Assembly: GCA_026708085.1 (NCBI GenBank)
Contig: JAPOVP010000189.1
Location: forward strand, 13,834-77,833
Source: Caldilineaceae bacterium
Lineage (GTDB): Bacteria; Chloroflexota; Anaerolineae; Caldilineales; Caldilineaceae
Length of the DNA stretch: 64,000 nt
Reading direction: 5' to 3'
The stretch's first letter is position 1. Each line of letters starts with the position of its first letter. Under the pieces are notes generated by a model. The model had not been told where the DNA came from. It saw only the letters and a list, made by a program, of their open reading frames with translations, and ran no database searches. This document shows positions 36,363 through 44,088 of this stretch, piece after piece. The position numbers and the translations under genes were made by a program.

Positions 36363-37286
36363 CTAGACCGGTTGGGCAGGCAGAAAGTTGCTGTAGTACT
36401 GATTCTGCTGGATGCGTTGACTGCGGAAGACTTCTGCAATCCCTCTCATCCCCAAAGACTCGTAGTCTATCGGTTCACGCGTCAGGTCGGGCAGCGCAAG
36501 TAGAGACCGCACGGTTTCCGGTTCCAACTCAGGCGTCCATATCGGCCACACGAAGTAGATCTCTCGCCGACCAGCTCGTTGAAATCCAGTAGTCACCGCT
36601 TGGCGTCCCACCGGCATAGTCGGGAACCACCGCAACGCCTCTACCGCCAGACAGTCTGCCCCGAGCATCATGCCCGGGCCGTCAGCAAGTTTGGACTTGC
36701 TCGGATCGCGCCAGCGCAGCGCGTATCGTTGGTCTCCTATCGGGTCCCAGCGGAGACTGTAGCCTTCGTCCCGGTAATCCCAAGCTCCAAAAATAGACAG
36801 GTGCAAACGGTCAAGAGTCAGAGCTTCGAGGTTGGCTTTGGCATAATATGGCAATCCCTGCCCCGCGGCATCTCCGCTGCGCACCATGCGAAACTTTGAA
36901 TCCTGAAACTGACCGCTCCTCGTGTCAGGATATAGCTCGGTCCCCATGCCAGCCAGCAGATCAGTATCCCTCCGTCCATCAATCGACGAGGAATCCTGCG
37001 CCTCCTTGAGTGCTTCGCTGAACTTGCCGACGTCATACGGCATCTTGTTATCGACATCAAAGACAGTTACGGGCGCACGCTGCAGCATATCCAGGATTCG
37101 TTCCGAGAACTCTCTTTCGTCACAACCGCATCCCAGAAATAAGGGGCTCCACCCTCGACCTGTCTGTCTCCAACCGAATCGTAACCCCGCGCAAGATTCC
37201 GCCGCCACAACCGCTGCGCCAATAGCCGCCAGAAATCCGAGCGGATTGCTCCCTCCCAGGCCTCGCAACAGGAGGCCGGTCTCCAT
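36363..37286 (-). CDS. Putative type I-G large subunit (Cas8g/Csb3-like)
   Basis: Assigned mainly by position directly after cas3. The N-terminus from the ATG at 37286 is METGLLLRGLGGSNPLGFLAAIGA. The ORF-track extension to 37532 overlaps cas3 and is probably not translated. Confidence 0.5.
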   Translation of the reverse strand: METGLLLRGLGGSNPLGFLAAIGAAVVAAESCAGLRFGWRQTGRGWSPLFLGCGCDEREFSERILDMLQRAPVTVFDVDNKMPYDVGKFSEALKEAQDSSSIDGRRDTDLLAGMGTELYPDTRSGQFQDSKFRMVRSGDAAGQGLPYYAKANLEALTLDRLHLSIFGAWDYRDEGYSLRWDPIGDQRYALRWRDPSKSKLADGPGMMLGADCLAVEALRWFPTMPVGRQAVTTGFQRAGRREIYFVWPIWTPELEPETVRSLLALPDLTREPIDYESLGMRGIAEVFRSQRIQQNQYYSNFLPAQPV

Positions 37287-37297
37287 TTCACCTGTGC

Positions 37298-40200
37298 TCA
37301 CTGCCTTTCCTCCCATTCGCTTCGCCGCCAGTCCGCCAGACGCAGCAGCGCCTCCAGCCATGCCAGACCCCACCATCCGTAACGCCGCACGAGACGCCAA
37401 TAACGCTCTGCAACGCCCGAGTCGAGACGCTCCAGACCCGTGGAACCGGACCATTGCATCCGCGCGCCGTCCATTGCAAACTCGGAATCCACGCTCGCTG
37501 CATCCTGCACCACCGGCGCAAACGGGCGGCAATAGCCGTGATGACTGGCGATCAGGTGGAGCGTCAAGTCACACAGTTCCGGCTTATTGGGCAACAGACT
37601 GGCGGCGCTCTCTGCCAGTCGAACAGACAGCAGCTCGTGGCGGCCGCCCCTTGGATATTCTGCCTTTTTCTGGCCCCTGCCAAACGCTTGCCCTTTCGGC
37701 ATTTGGCCGGACTTTGCCAGATGCGCGCCACCCATCCAGAGGTGGCTGCCTTGCAACAGCGCCTGAAAGCGCGGGTCCGCCTTCCCTACGTCGTGAAGAA
37801 GACCGGCACGCGCCACGGCATCGGCCAGATCGTCCGTCAGCCCGCACCCTTCTGCATAACGCCGCACGAACGATTCCACCCCGCGCAGATGGTCTTCCAA
37901 CCGGATGGGGCGCCCGTCGCTATCGGATATGCTCGATGCGCTGGCGTCATCCTCATCCGAAAATGTATCGGCATCCCCCATGAGCTCGGGTATGCGGCGG
38001 TTTCCGGCAATGACGAGATGGCTGTCACCCACAATTCGATACGCCCGCCGCAGTTTGGCCCCGCTATATTCTGTCCTAAGTTCCCCTGCCGCTTCACCCA
38101 GCCAGCTATCTTCGGGCGCATGCACGATGAGGGTGTCCAGAATCCCTCTGAGCGTGTCAGCAACTTCAGCTTCGTCAGGATCCTGCTCGTGCTTCTGGGT
38201 TATCTCCTTCAGCAGGTCGCAAGTCTTCTCCTTGACGGCGTCTAGCTCCAGAGGCCATGCCTTTACCAGCTTCTTGTGCAGACGCAGCAACGGCCTTGCG
38301 CGCGCCAAACGGTGGGCCTGATCGCCCACATCAAGCATGTCATCCGACCCGCTGGCCTGTGGGGGAAAGTCGCCAATCTGATCGAATGAGCCTGGATGGC
38401 TTGTAGGCACTACAATGACGTCTCCGGGACGAACTTCCCTTGGGTCGGCCGTTATCTCCTTCTTCCCCGTATCTCTTACCCCCCGCCACCTGATTACTTT
38501 GTAGGCCTCATCAAGCGTCCCTTCACCGATCTGCGTATTGTCCCGCTCCCTGCCCTCCACGTCACTGCTGTCGTCATCGGCCTCTTCAGCGCGCAACCAC
38601 CTCCTGAATACGCCAATAGGAACAGGAAGCGTTTCGCTGCTGCTTGGGGGGCAGAGCTTCAAGACCTCAAGCGCGGTCGCCCTGCCATCCGGGTTCGTCA
38701 AGTCAATATCAGCGCGCCAGCAAACCTGTACGTCTGGGGCACCTTCGCGCGGCCCGTGTAGGAAAAGAGCCACGTCAGGGGAAGGGCGAGGTTTCGGCGC
38801 AGTCTGCGCCCAGCAGTCGACATGGGCCGGCAGCATGACCGGAGCGTCCAGGGACGGGGCATTCAGCGTGTCCAGGGATTCAATCGTTGACAGTGTGCGA
38901 TCCAGAGATGCTATCCCGAAATCCACCTCGCCGTTCCCGTCACTGATCTCCTGCAGCCAAGCCCACGTGGCGGTGAGCGCCGTTCCATAGACCGGGTCGC
39001 CCTCGTCCCCCTTCTTGAACTCGGCCTGGTCCTCGCGTACCAGGATGACTGCGCGCGAGTCGATCTCCCTTCCCATACGATTCAACCGTCCGAACCGCTG
39101 GCGCAGAGCGTCGAGACTGGCGCATTCGGTAACCAGGCCATCGAAGTCGAGGTCAGCGCCGACCTCCAGCGTCTGCGTTGCAACGACGATCATCGGCCTC
39201 TCGAGCGCACGCTGCTCAGAATGGTCGGACTGAAGCTTGTTAAGACGCTCTTCGACTACAAAATTCTTGTCGATGGGGCGCATGCGCCCTGTCAGCAGGA
39301 CAACATCAAACTCCTCCATTGCAGTCAGCAACTTGTAAGTTGCCCTGGCGGTCACAACGCGGTTGACGAATACCACTACCGCGCGCAGTTGCTCGCTCAC
39401 GAGCGCCACCGCGGCTTCAGCCAAGGCCTTGGCCAGGACATCCGTCGCACGCCTCCCCTTGGCTCCGCCAACCCTCTTCAAAATTGCTGGCTTACGCGCC
39501 AGCTGACGTATTCCAAGAGGATGGTCGGGGTCAATTCGTTCGTCAGATCTGTCTTCGAACCTGCTGCTCAGTTCCGGCGGCGGGGTCGCCGACATGACAA
39601 CAGGCTGAAAGGCGCGCGCCAGAGGAGCGTCTGCCCACTCTCTGTAGCGGCGGACAGCCTGCAGGGTCTGCAGAAACGGCTGCGCACAGTGCGCCTCATC
39701 CAGGAAGATCAGGCTGTCGTTGGCAACCAGCGCGGCGTAAACGGGCCATACGCCGGAACCGCGGCCGTACCCGCGGAACAAGAGCCGCGACCCCACCTGG
39801 TCCACCGTCGATGCAACGACGGTGGGCTGGAGAGGGTCGCGCGCCCAGGCCTCGGAACGGTACATGCCGCCCCGCAATGCGTAGGCCCGCAGCGGAGTCT
39901 CGCCTTCATACCCCGATGTCGCGCCGAAGGCGATCTGCCGCAAGTTGTCCGCTACTACCTTGAGGACCCCGTCCTCTGCTCTGCAAAGCTTCTCTGCTAC
40001 TTCTCGCGCTCTTTCGTACGCCTGGTCTACGATCACGCGGCGGTCCACGACGAAGAAAATGCGGCGCGGCGCGGTGATGACTTCGCCTCTGGCAATATGC
40101 GAAGCCTGGTTTGCCAGGGCAAACACCGCAATATCCACGCACGCAGTCTTGCCCGAAGCCGTAGGCAACGCGATCGCCTCCGGCCATTCAGCGCCGCCCG

Positions 40201-40316: not shown

Positions 40317-41903
40317 TCAACTCTCCATTGGCCGGCACAGCCCATAGCCCCGAAACCGTCCCGCCCCAACAGTGACCGGTCCCCGCACCGGCTTCTCGAA
40401 GACCAGTACGGCGTGGCTGTGGCTCTGGCGTCCGCCGTCGCTCTTGCGAGTCATCTGAGGGAAATCCCTCGCATGTGGCACGCCTTCGACCATCGACACC
40501 GGGTGCAGCAACACCTCGCGCGGGCGCGGCAGACCGATGTGCCCGCAGGCATCCTTCACGCTCTCTGCCGCCTGCTGCCACCTGTCCTTGCCCTTGAAAT
40601 GTCGGTTGAGGACAATCGGAGTGACGCTGGCCCAGACACGCGACGCCCGCGTCCATGTAGCGACGTCAAGATTCTTGGGCGAGCGTTCTCGGCTCTCCAG
40701 TTCGAGCTGGCATTCGAACCACTGTCCGTCAAACAGACGATGCTCGCGCGGCAGTCCCGTATCAACGCTCAGCAAAAACGTTTCCAGACAGCGTCGGGCC
40801 TCTTCCGGGTTCAACGTCTGCGGCAACGCCAGCGCCAACCCCATTACGCGGCCGTCGGCATACCGATCTCCCACAAAGGGAAGCGGCAGCAGTGCCATAT
40901 GCGGTCTGGTCGTCGGTGAACCACTCGCTTTGTGCCCGCTGAACCACTCTGGAGGCGGCTGCTCCGGGCAACAGCCCATCAAGACCCCGCGCAGTGCCTG
41001 TGTAAGTTTCAGCGTCGTCGGCAGCGGAACGCGCCGGCCCCCGATTGCAAGCACAACCATGTTCGGGTCGAAGACCGAGCCAGGAAGGCCGGGAGAGTCG
41101 GGCTTCGTCGGTTTCCCATAGCCCTGCCAGCGTGTCGGCACAGGCCGCAGGCTCACGGGCGTATGCGTACCGAATCGCTCGGCAATAACGCTGTCCAGCC
41201 GCTTCTTTTCTTCTCGCATCCTTCGATCCCGTGTTCCTTTGAGCGCGTCGGAACGCGCCTTCAACTCCTCATGTTCCACGACTTGCGCTCTGTTGTAGGC
41301 CTGAGTGAGATCTGCGAGACGGCCGGACGAGAAAACCCGAAGACGGTGTACGGCGACGCCTTCAGTCGGTTCCCAGGTGGGAACAATGTCGCTATCCTCC
41401 GTTACCCATGCCTGAACGAACGACGCCGAATGCCCCACATAAGTCATCTTGGCGGCCAGTCGCTCCAGGCCGACGCGATGTCTTTCCAGTTCGCCCTCTT
41501 GCCAGACCAGATACACTTCCGGGTCATGGGGAATCGCGATGGGGAAACCTCGCGCCTGGCGGGACCGATGCTCCGGCAGCACACCCAGTCCAGCGTCTCT
41601 TAACTTTCGCAGTTCCCCGCTTTTGGGGATCCTGCGGCCGACCCTACTGTCGTTGACGGGAACATAGCTGACTACCGCTGTTCGAGTTGCGTAGCCCGAC
41701 GCGGCGATGGCGGGGGGAGGAAGCGTTTCCAACCAGCGCAACGCTCTGCCCTCTTCAGCGTCTTCACCCGTCTCGAAAAACGCGGCAGCCAGCGCCATGA
41801 AAATGCGGTCCGGATGGGGAGGCCATTCGGCCTGTTCCTTTCTCGCCCCATCCGCCGCGGCCATCGCCCAACCGTTAAGGTAACGGATTCCAAGCCCGAA
41901 CAT
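40317..41903 (-). CDS. csb2: Csb2 (Cas5-Cas6 fusion of type I-G)
   Basis: MFGLGIRYLNGWAMAAADGARKEQAEWPPHPDRIFMALAAAF is the characteristic Csb2 N-terminus. 528 aa. Confidence 0.8.
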   Translation of the reverse strand: MFGLGIRYLNGWAMAAADGARKEQAEWPPHPDRIFMALAAAFFETGEDAEEGRALRWLETLPPPAIAASGYATRTAVVSYVPVNDSRVGRRIPKSGELRKLRDAGLGVLPEHRSRQARGFPIAIPHDPEVYLVWQEGELERHRVGLERLAAKMTYVGHSASFVQAWVTEDSDIVPTWEPTEGVAVHRLRVFSSGRLADLTQAYNRAQVVEHEELKARSDALKGTRDRRMREEKKRLDSVIAERFGTHTPVSLRPVPTRWQGYGKPTKPDSPGLPGSVFDPNMVVLAIGGRRVPLPTTLKLTQALRGVLMGCCPEQPPPEWFSGHKASGSPTTRPHMALLPLPFVGDRYADGRVMGLALALPQTLNPEEARRCLETFLLSVDTGLPREHRLFDGQWFECQLELESRERSPKNLDVATWTRASRVWASVTPIVLNRHFKGKDRWQQAAESVKDACGHIGLPRPREVLLHPVSMVEGVPHARDFPQMTRKSDGGRQSHSHAVLVFEKPVRGPVTVGAGRFRGYGLCRPMES

Positions 41904-43105
41904 CAGGCCTCCTCCTCGGTCGACGCGGTCGCCAGCTCCTGGCTGCGTCTGACCAGCTCGACCAGCTCCGGCGATGGCGTCAACGCGATCTCACCTTCCC
42001 AGGGCAGTCCCTTCCCTCTTGCCTCCGTGATCGCCTCCCCCAGTATCGCGAGAGCTGTTTCGGAATCGCACTCGAACTGCTTAGGGCTCTCTCCCGGGCG
42101 GTCAAGCAACTCCCACACCGGCGCCTGCAGCGCGAAGAGCTGGCAGCGCGAGCGCAGATCCCCGTCGTTGCGCGCCAGCGCGCCGGCGGCAAGCCCCAAC
42201 GCGGCCAGCGTCGTGCGCGCGGCAACGTCGATGTCCGGCCCTGAATCAACTGCCCCGTCGAGGGGAAAGCGAAGCCGGCGCAAGGTGGACAGCGACAGCA
42301 CGGTGGTCTGCGTGGCCTTCGAAATCGTAAACCCACCACTCTCAATGCCAGGAGTGACGTTTCCATGATTCGCTTCCGACGGCTTCCCGTCCCTCCCAAG
42401 CTTCTTGCTTCCGTGATTCTGACGCAGGGTCCAATGCGGGGCGTCATCACTTTCGGATCCGTTTTCATAAAGCGGCCCTGCCCCCAAACGAATTTGCGCA
42501 GGATCAACCCGGCTGGACGTCCTTGCCCCTTCCACGGCGTCGTACCCGATAATTTCCGACACGATTGCCCGCTGGAACTTGGCTCCCATCCCTCCACGCG
42601 GCCCGGTGGAGTCCCACAAACCAAATAGGAGGGCCGTCGGACAAAGGCCGAAAAGACCAGCAGCATTTCGAATGTCTGCTGTGTCAAGGACAGCGCCCTT
42701 TGCCGACCTGCGAAAAATCATGCCGTCGATAAGGCTGTCACGGAAAAGGGCATCCGCGACCCGGTGTGGTGCTTCCAAACTGGTCACGGCAAACCGCTTG
42801 AGCAACGTATCCTGGTCGAAGCGGGTTACCAGCAACGGAAGCTGCACTCGATTGGCCCTGTGCGCTTCCAACAAGGCCAATTCCATGCGGTTTGCTTGTG
42901 ACTGTACTGAGTCCAGCAGCACGCACTGTCGCTTCTCGCCCGTATCCGGATCAATGCGTTCCTCGGTTGCGTACCTCCCGCCTTCGTAGGTTGGAGGAAA
43001 CACCTTGTCCCCCGGTCCACCGGCAGGCTGATAGTCCGTCACACACCGAAACGCGGCGGCCGTGCCACCGACGGCATCTTGCAAGGCCTGAAAGTCGATT
43101 TTCAC
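41903..43105 (-). CDS. csb1: Csb1 / Cas7 of type I-G
   Basis: QPAGGPGDKVFPPTYEGGRYATEER...VLLDSVQSQANRMELALL is the Csb1 signature. GTG start at 43105 with AAGGAGAT 7 nt upstream. Confidence 0.85.
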   Translation of the reverse strand: MKIDFQALQDAVGGTAAAFRCVTDYQPAGGPGDKVFPPTYEGGRYATEERIDPDTGEKRQCVLLDSVQSQANRMELALLEAHRANRVQLPLLVTRFDQDTLLKRFAVTSLEAPHRVADALFRDSLIDGMIFRRSAKGAVLDTADIRNAAGLFGLCPTALLFGLWDSTGPRGGMGAKFQRAIVSEIIGYDAVEGARTSSRVDPAQIRLGAGPLYENGSESDDAPHWTLRQNHGSKKLGRDGKPSEANHGNVTPGIESGGFTISKATQTTVLSLSTLRRLRFPLDGAVDSGPDIDVAARTTLAALGLAAGALARNDGDLRSRCQLFALQAPVWELLDRPGESPKQFECDSETALAILGEAITEARGKGLPWEGEIALTPSPELVELVRRSQELATASTEEEA

Positions 43106-43607
43106 TGTTCATATCTCCTTTGGATATGTGCTACACTTCGAGCAGCGAATGCAGTACTTATATCGGTCCAAACGCACTGCCGGCCCGGTGTCAGTGCTTC
43201 TTGTATTGCCTCAACCTCCCGAGCCGACGACGCGATCAAAACTGAGTCCTGGTCACAGTGCTTGTTGAGAGCCAGACGTAGAGAGCGCAATGACAAAAGG
43301 GGATTCACAACTGGCATGCTGATTGTCCTTAGGCAAGGGCCAAATCGACGACCGAAAATTGCCGGAATCTAACGGGTTCTGTCGATGTAAGCCTCTATTC
43401 GTGCGACTCTTGGCGTTATTCTCCGCCCTGAAGCCGAATCAACCAGCGCTCTGCGGAACCATGACCGTATTCGATGCGTGTACCTTGCCTGATCCGACTC
43501 GCAAACAGCCAGACAAACCGCTACGGCGAGGTTGATGGTCAACGCCCGCTGTTGAAACGTGCGTATCATGGCGAGTAAAAACTAATCTTATAACACATAT
43601 GAAAAAT

Positions 43608-43636
43608 AGAATAGCACACGGCTTGGGCCTTGTCAA
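43608..43636 (-). promoter_or_regulatory. Strong sigma70-like promoter reading toward the small ORFs and the cas operon
   Basis: On the minus strand: TTGACA (43636-43631), a 17-nt spacer, then TATTCT (43613-43608). It lies in the only AT-rich stretch upstream of csb1. Confidence 0.55.
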
Positions 43637-43685
43637 TACCCAAATCAAGGCAATTTCATTTTTTCTTGAACTTTCTAACTTTCAT

Positions 43686-43791
43686 GCGCCATTGAATATG
43701 CCGATCGGACTCCATTGAAGAATATGAGCTATCAGATTCTGTCGGCAAGCATCCTTCTACTCCGGGCCGCAAGGCCCGGCCCCTTTGAAAG
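43686..43791 (+). ncRNA. Degenerate mini-CRISPR (creA/CreR-like): psiR1, 36-nt psi-spacer, psiR2
   Basis: psiR1 tail at 43710-43721, CTCCATTGAAGA, matches the repeat tail at 11/12. The psi-spacer is 43722-43757. psiR2 at 43758-43791 has a perfect 7-bp stem (CCGGGCC-GCAA-GGCCCGG) at the repeat-stem position, then CCCCTTTGAAAG (8/12 to the repeat tail). Confidence 0.6.
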
Positions 43792-44088
43792 GCCGTAGAT
43801 CATCCGCGTCTCACCGGCTTCCTGCCGTGCGCGGGGCCGAGTGGTGACCGAGATTGGCGCGACGGTGGGATCAGTCGGCTCAGCTGCCGTACCGGGCCGC
43901 CTTCGAATTCAAGCTTGGAACTGGTCGGGGAGTGCCCCCCTGTTAGAAAACGCCCTGTACGCTTCTCATCCTATCAGCGCGCCGTCAGTGCTCATCCGCT
44001 TGGGCAACGCCAACGCCCAGGCCCCACAATGCCGGCCCTCTATGAAAAATTGGAGGCCGCCACCGTGGTCCAAAACGATCCCATTTTC

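Follow-up and report, generated by a model that had tools for sequence, protein, structure and literature searches.

We propose that the long leader of the type I-G effector operon described here is the 5′ untranslated region of an operon under CreR-type autoregulation, and that its middle, a stretch of about 430 nt, is unselected filler in which open reading frames stand open by chance. We hold this reading to be reasonably probable. It was reached in silico and draws on the promoter, the PAM and its target, covariation, lineage restriction, a codon content that resembles the background and near-neutral divergence. The original prediction had put forward a CreT-like toxin encoded by small ORFs in the leader and, alternatively, a long 5′ UTR that would make the system a CreR-type autoregulator. 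It is the alternative that agrees with our findings, namely with the covariation of guide and target and with the absence of the leader middle from congeneric loci. For the toxin reading we see no support: in the leader, AGA and AUA codons occur at the non-coding background, the ORFs are not conserved beyond a narrow lineage and one of them, ORF71, is close to neutral.

The effector promoter and its putative guide

The window, by which we mean the whole stretch of 64,000 nucleotides that was analysed, carries a complete type I-G system on its minus strand. The genome measures 6.2 Mb, with 59.6% GC and a GC3 of 0.73 over 1658 long ORFs. The effector genes and the elements upstream of them are as follows.

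41903..43105, minus strand: csb1 (cas7g), TIGR02570, GTG start, first gene of csb1-csb2-cas3g-cas8g
41903-40317, minus strand: csb2
40369-37298, minus strand: cas3g
37532-36363, minus strand: 389-aa protein, Cas3-extension according to NCBIfam and Cas8g according to PADLOC
43608..43636, minus strand: sigma-70-type promoter of the effector operon, TTGACA (43636-43631), 17-nt spacer and TG-extended TATTCT (43613-43608)
43584..43603, minus strand: PAM TTC (43603-43601) and 17-nt partial pseudo-spacer target (43600-43584)
43686..43793, plus strand: divergent degenerate mini-CRISPR (CreR-like), psiR1 43686-43721, psiS 43722-43757, psiR2 43758-43793

On the 3′ side of the effector genes lie array 2, then cas4/cas1, cas2 and array 1. 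The GTG start of csb1 was fixed by homology (MKID...) to its relatives, which use ATG. The relatives that were retrieved by DNA pattern are Caldilineaceae MAGs, Chloroflexota.

The promoter is the sole site with at least 8 of 12 positions on the minus strand from 43660 to 43090, and both its TTGACA and its extended −10 box are retained in all congeneric loci. The TTC begins four bases past the −10 box and the target 8 nt past it, at the predicted transcription start, which would lie at about 43600. The target reads ATATGTGTTATAAGATT and the pseudo-spacer begins ATATGAGCTATCAGATT; the two match at 14 of 15 positions (positions 1-17 minus positions 6 and 12), and no pairing was found past position 17. 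TTN is the known type I-G PAM (PMC9638904). Within the 6.2-Mb genome the target is the unique best TTN-flanked site, the runners-up scoring 12/15. The mini-CRISPR itself lies outside the leader and is given here as context. The tail of psiR1, CTCCATTGAAGA (ending at 43721), is kept, psiR2 carries a 7-bp hairpin (CCGGGCC-GCAA-GGCCCGG), and the element is conserved across same-genus genomes.

Is this pairing a peculiarity of one genome? In eight other same-genus Caldilineaceae loci with a local target, the mini-CRISPR, the TTGACA, the extended −10 box and a TTN PAM (TTC, TTT, TTA or TTG) are all kept, and each pseudo-spacer agrees with the target of its own locus at 13-14 of 15 positions. Pseudo-spacer and target co-vary, that is, their sequences differ from lineage to lineage and the match persists. 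The original prediction had taken a Cascade-targeted promoter as its premise, and this premise stands on the promoter, the PAM, the partial target and the covariation in the eight other loci. We infer from these sequences that the effector promoter is repressed by the system's own Cascade in a CreR-type loop. In the mechanism that we propose, the divergent mini-CRISPR would guide Cascade to the PAM-flanked partial target and would in this way gate the promoter of csb1-csb2-cas3g-cas8g. A CreR-type self-repression loop with co-varying guide and target would then be conserved across Caldilineaceae type I-G loci.

Length and content of the leader

Counted from the predicted transcription start (43600) up to the GTG of csb1 (43105), the leader measures 495 nt, close to the 500 nt or so that had been estimated. 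In the congeneric loci that share this gene order (L003, L004, L006, L007, L010 and L013) the leaders are only 74-225 nt long and AT-rich, with a GC of 0.32-0.42 against 0.51 for the leader here. Two parts of the leader need to be distinguished.

43150..43582, minus strand: lineage-specific leader middle (~430 nt, GC about 0.51-0.54) that no congeneric locus has
43106..43149, minus strand: ribosome-binding block before csb1, with the stem GCTGC/GTAGC, the SD AAGGAGA and ATGAA

BLAST similarity to the relatives stops at query positions 268 and 702, and the alignment concurs. The similarity spans the mini-CRISPR, the promoter and the target to about 43583 and restarts at about 43149, 44 nt upstream of csb1. 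For the middle (43582-43150) no DNA match was obtained in 36 genomes of the genus and none in plasmids or phages, and a comparison of the leader with its own genome (blastn, tblastx) revealed no second copy, paralogue or gene remnant. A DNA scan of JGI metagenomes and GTDB genomes for the psiR2 hairpin found the long leader in 0 of 23 further loci; it returned only the known short-leader types, plus unrelated GC hairpins. An origin of the insert from a mobile element was considered and rejected, because it has neither terminal repeats nor second copies.

The block before csb1 comprises the stem (43146-43142/43134-43130), the SD (43120-43114) and the ATGAA 7 nt before the start, and it is 71-80% identical to the relatives; the GCTGC/GTAGC stem is confined to the W/L003/L006/L007 subclade. 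Could the long leader tune the output of Cascade as a regulatory RNA acting in cis, for instance by attenuation, as a sensor of the riboswitch kind or as a platform for processing? Its length would suit such a role, as would the conserved block and small stem that adjoin the SD and the ability of ten nucleotides at the 5′ end of the leader to pair with 43133-43124. However, the folding of the 512-nt leader showed no excess structure compared with shuffles (z = −0.10), no match was found in Rfam or Pfam, the leader has neither an internal promoter nor a terminator, and RNAalifold gave no consensus pairs for the pre-csb1 block across seven loci. The relatives lack the leader middle, and they do not keep the 10 bp by which the 5′ end can pair with the region before the SD; we rejected this pairing as a conserved feature because they retain only ATATG/CATAT. 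The folding, Rfam and internal promoter and terminator checks thus gave no evidence of a regulatory role for the ~430-nt insert, and we consider a cis-regulatory RNA very improbable.

In the filler reading, which we prefer, the leader would have functional, conserved ends, namely the first ~20-30 nt, which overlap the target, and the last ~45 nt, with the ribosome-binding block. Between these ends, ~430 nt would have been gained in a narrow lineage and would behave as unselected filler, and the three small frames discussed below would be open in it by chance. The leader between operator and ribosome-binding site would, on this account, tolerate expansion, its length ranging from 74 to 495 nt in the loci compared.

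The small open reading frames

Three frames on the sense strand of the leader have been considered.

43566..43598, minus strand: 10-codon mini-ORF (MCYKISFYSP), ATG at target positions 3-5, TGA overlapping the ORF66 ATG
43369..43569, minus strand: ORF66, 66 codons, hydrophobic 15-mer followed by an Arg-rich tail, no SD
43102..43317, minus strand: ORF71, 71 codons, TAAGGA 8 nt upstream of the ATG

ORF66 lies wholly within the leader middle, as do the initial 56 codons of ORF71. An ATG ORF of 66 or more codons arose in 22% of dinucleotide shuffles and two on the sense strand in 1.5%, and the points that ORF count and hydrophobicity make in favour of a gene are post hoc. Conservation, which would be expected of a functional small ORF, was not seen: ORF66 has no homologue, ORF71 is restricted to a narrow lineage and both are absent from the congeneric operons. 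We infer that the small ORFs of the leader are untranslated.

The original prediction had drawn attention to rare codons. Four of the six Ile codons of ORF66 are indeed ATA and five of its Arg codons are AGA or AGG; the Arg total is 13 and not 12. The codon bias is atypical against genes only (in the 1658 long ORFs ATA makes up 10.7% of Ile and AGA+AGG 14.4% of Arg). As an intergenic proxy we used trinucleotide shares in 120 kb of DNA with a GC of 0.53, which gave 26% ATA and 34% AGR; in the leader itself the shares are 42% and 32%. The AGR content of ORF66 (5/13) does not exceed these backgrounds (p=0.47 against the proxy, p=0.39 against the leader trinucleotides), and its ATA content (4/6) is marginal against the proxy (p=0.045) and unexceptional against the leader (p=0.21). 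In GC-rich genomes, non-coding frames look rich in rare codons because they are non-coding. These results bear directly on the idea that the leader is a CreT-type RNA toxin which sequesters rare tRNA-Arg(UCU) or tRNA-Ile(CAU) via AGA/AUA codons. The counts in ORF66 and the single tRNA genes for UCU and CCU would agree with it; yet the codon frequencies equal those of non-coding DNA, no stabilising structure was found in the leader (the z of −0.10 given above), the sequence is not conserved in relatives and the leader has no unit of strong SD, start and tandem rare codons, its lone AGG-AGA pair being the csb1 SD itself. We regard this idea as scarcely credible.

Apart from the Arg total, ORF66 has the features that had been ascribed to it. 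It lies at 43569-43369, its ATG occupies positions 32-34 of the 36-nt protospacer-equivalent, it has no SD, and it contains a hydrophobic stretch (ALTINLAVAVCLAVC) and a basic tail. Its coding character is poor, with a flat GC1/2/3 of 0.55/0.55/0.56 and a codon log-likelihood of −0.16 per codon, at about the 1st-2nd percentile of gene segments. The frame is missing from a set of 5.8 billion proteins and was therefore never called by any gene caller; even in its own assembly it is uncalled as a gene. Searches with all sense and antisense ORFs in NCBIfam, Pfam, PHROGs and PADLOC gave no family match for ORF66, only sub-threshold noise, a peptide-pattern scan of IMG/VR returned nothing, and the ESM recognition value of 1520 was below threshold, with no usable match in the ESM Atlas. 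ORF66 is probably not a gene. The one feature left without explanation is the hydrophobic 15-mer: its mean Kyte-Doolittle value of 2.43 was matched in 0.4% of random ORFs and reached in 2.4% of shuffles in any sense frame, a statistic that is post hoc.

Might ORF66 nevertheless be a small membrane toxin, translated and repressed by Cascade, and thus a CreT/CreP-type guard in the cas leader? It lies directly downstream of the Cascade-targeted promoter, its hydrophobic 15-mer and basic tail are rarely equalled by random ORFs, as stated above, a lineage-specific insert is a frequent trait of toxin cassettes, and there are precedents in the 31-aa translated CreT of Citrobacter rodentium (PMC12055562) and in CreP (10.1101/2024.01.05.574328). 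The toxin would possibly be coupled to the mini-ORF by the ATGA overlap and released upon loss or inhibition of Cascade. Against this stand the missing SD, the flat GC profile and negative codon score, the low ESM value, the lack of any homologue, family or gene call, and the post hoc nature of the hydrophobicity statistic; moreover, steady-state transcription of the operon would mean constant expression of the toxin. Behind the Cascade-targeted promoter, no ribosome-binding site was found for ORF66, only the ATGA overlap with a near-leaderless mini-ORF, and ORF71 has TAAGGA at −8. We think a toxic ORF66 unlikely. We are equally doubtful about a bolder version, in which a guard cassette was captured as the ~430-nt insert and ORF66 is a Hok-like Cascade-repressed toxin translated via coupling to the mini-ORF. 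In that version ORF66 would consist of an N-terminal membrane helix and a basic tail, with the mini-ORF at the extreme 5′ end of the transcript. Were it true, a Chloroflexota lineage would have made an addiction or anti-anti-CRISPR module out of a plain autoregulator, and with a toxic ORF66 the range of CRISPR-repressed toxins would take in subtype I-G and the Chloroflexota.

The mini-ORF exists as described, at 43598-43566; the remark that it is made almost entirely of A/U-ending codons does not hold, such codons being 6 of 10. Its ATG is present only in loci whose pseudo-spacer starts with ATATG or ATCTG. It is missing in L004, L010 and L013, and in L003 the frame has 3 codons. Judged from these sequences, the mini-ORF is a by-product of the target sequence.

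ORF71 may be an orphan frame or else a gene of very recent origin. As predicted, it is present at 43317-43102. It spans the SD of csb1 (AAGGAGA, 43120-43114), and its last bases overlap the csb1 start as GTGA. The final 15 codons of the frame coincide with the conserved pre-csb1 block, which the relatives possess without such an ORF. The csb1 of every relative starts with ATGAA(A/G), so a frame in this phase stops there; the GTGA overlap is therefore automatic and no evidence of coupling. It may serve as a caution that such overlaps can arise automatically from the second codon of the next gene.

The possibility that ORF71 is a real, young orphan gene with its own SD, encoding an accessory I-G protein, deserves to be weighed, and under it translation would read through to the csb1 start. 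Besides the TAAGGA 8 nt upstream of its ATG, ORF71 has the gene-like order of GC1 and GC2 (0.61/0.46) and an ESM recognition value of 2364, above threshold. It has four close relatives and one identical copy, was called by gene callers on at least five contigs, and is indel-free and open across 58 codons in the relatives P0002-P0004. However, its GC3 is 0.48 vs 0.73 for genes, and its codon log-likelihood of −0.13 per codon corresponds to about the 1st-2nd percentile of real gene segments. A profile search of 1.84 billion representatives yielded nothing beyond the close relatives except P0126, a repetitive protein of 191 aa (E = 5e-4) which we judged to be a chance match. Peptide-pattern scans of JGI metagenomes, GTDB genomes and IMG/VR gave nothing, the ESM Atlas had no usable match, and the AF2 model (pLDDT 54) was too poor for a structure search.

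The divergence of ORF71 speaks against a gene. Over its first 58 codons it is 81% identical on the P0003 contig and 79% on the P0004 contig, where Csb1 identity is 95.8% and 94.0%, respectively (the contigs were paired by their lengths). ORF71 diverges by 19-22% vs 4-6% for Csb1, a ratio of 3.4-4.5, or 2.2 between P0003 and P0004. By the same pairing, ORF71 occurs only on contigs with a Csb1 of at least 94% identity and was undetected beside Csb1 relatives that are 92-93% identical. Neutral simulation starting from the window DNA gave 78-81% amino acid identity at a base divergence of 10-12%; at that level the omega of Csb1 would be an ordinary ~0.2. ORF71 remained open in 52-56% of the neutral runs, so its retention is not significant. 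The 23 replacements are no more conservative than chance (mean BLOSUM62 −0.87 vs −0.50 expected for random single-base changes; for example I38K, I53K, A29D and G45C), and the C-terminus is unstable, the tail being frameshifted in P0003 and P0004 ending at 59 aa. The comparison suggests that ORF71 evolves at about the neutral rate. It is also absent from all congeneric operons, and we find a real gene improbable, if somewhat less so than a toxic ORF66.

Relation to known Cas-regulating circuits

The leader shares single traits with several CRISPR-regulated toxins. As in CreTA of the haloarchaeal type I-B system (PMC8501985; Li et al. 2021), AGA and AUA codons lie downstream of a Cascade-repressed promoter. 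In contrast to CreTA, the leader lacks an SD-AUG with tandem rare codons and a hairpin after it, its share of rare codons equals the non-coding background, and the transcript runs into the cas genes. The CreT of the type I-E system of C. rodentium, which is 31 aa long, translated, located in the cas3/casA region and without homologues (PMC12055562), resembles our case in being a homologue-less small ORF that stands between a CreA target and the genes for Cascade, within ~495 bp of intergenic DNA. Its ORF, however, has a predicted strong RBS, is toxic and needs translation, whereas ORF66 has no RBS. In CrePA of the Acinetobacter baylyi ADP1 type I-F system (10.1101/2024.01.05.574328), a protein-coding frame likewise stands behind a CreA-repressed promoter in the cas locus; CreP, unlike ORF66 and ORF71, which have neither domain nor family, is a 103-aa KilAC-domain protein with 50 homologues.

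The reading preferred here places the system among the CreR circuits. Autorepression by CreR has been shown experimentally for types I-B, I-E and V-A, and creA-like elements for I-U (now I-G) are mentioned in Fig. S7 of the same study (Liu et al., 10.1101/2023.03.10.532045); I-G is also one of the subtypes for which Shmakov et al. list standalone repeats. The present system differs from these circuits in its subtype, I-G, in its host, a member of the Caldilineaceae, and in its unusually long (495 nt), lineage-specific leader. It agrees with them in having a degenerate two-repeat mini-CRISPR beside the cas operon, whose pseudo-spacer pairs partly, over 17 nt, with a site next to a PAM at the promoter of the effector genes, and in having no convincing toxin.

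The csb1 leader and the large subunit

Two features of the window's type I-G operon (csb1-csb2-cas3g-cas8g) are as follows.

43130-43146: small stem GCUGC-UCGAAGU-GUAGC, shortly before the csb1 Shine-Dalgarno sequence
36363-37532: 389-aa protein, annotated as 'Cas3-extension family' by NCBIfam and as Cas8g by PADLOC

Among the related Caldilineaceae loci with which the window was compared, the stem is retained as GCUAC/GUAGC in L003, L006 and L007, and it is not retained in L004, L010 or L013. The csb1 start codon is GTG in the window (43103-43120 region), whereas all relatives have ATG, and an out-of-frame ATGAA lies 7 nt upstream of the start in all seven loci, in two of them as TTGAA. The 389-aa protein matches the PADLOC Cas8g large-subunit model with E = 8e-72, so the operon does include a large subunit, positioned after cas3.

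Mini-CRISPRs in front of cas3 and on their own

Further copies of the mini-CRISPR, the degenerate CreR-like element, were found in other loci.

L005:1451-2110 and L008:1431-2088: mini-CRISPR, promoter and target ahead of cas3
L002:1431-1660 (G029 contig 2): orphan mini-CRISPR

In L005 and L008, from two species of the genus, a mini-CRISPR, a promoter and a target of this type stand ahead of cas3, not csb1, and the putative self-repression loop would thus serve both type I-G gene orders. The pseudo-spacers of L002 and the window are almost the same, and the one in L002 agrees with the window's target at 14 of 15 positions; we found neither a local target nor an adjoining cas gene for this copy, which adjoins two 28-nt repeats (GGTCTATTCCCGCGTGTGCGGGGGAGCC) separated by 552 nt.

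Guide-target pairing

Pairing was compared in ten loci, and a common pattern is seen in nine, namely the window (43584-43793), L003, L004, L005, L006, L007, L008, L010 and L013, the exception being the orphan L002. In these nine, pairing ends after position 17 and mismatches occur at positions 6, 12 and 18, with one extra mismatch per locus at position 3, 8, 9 or 16 (two in L005). From the sequences, this pattern looks like the design of a tuned, non-cleaving operator.
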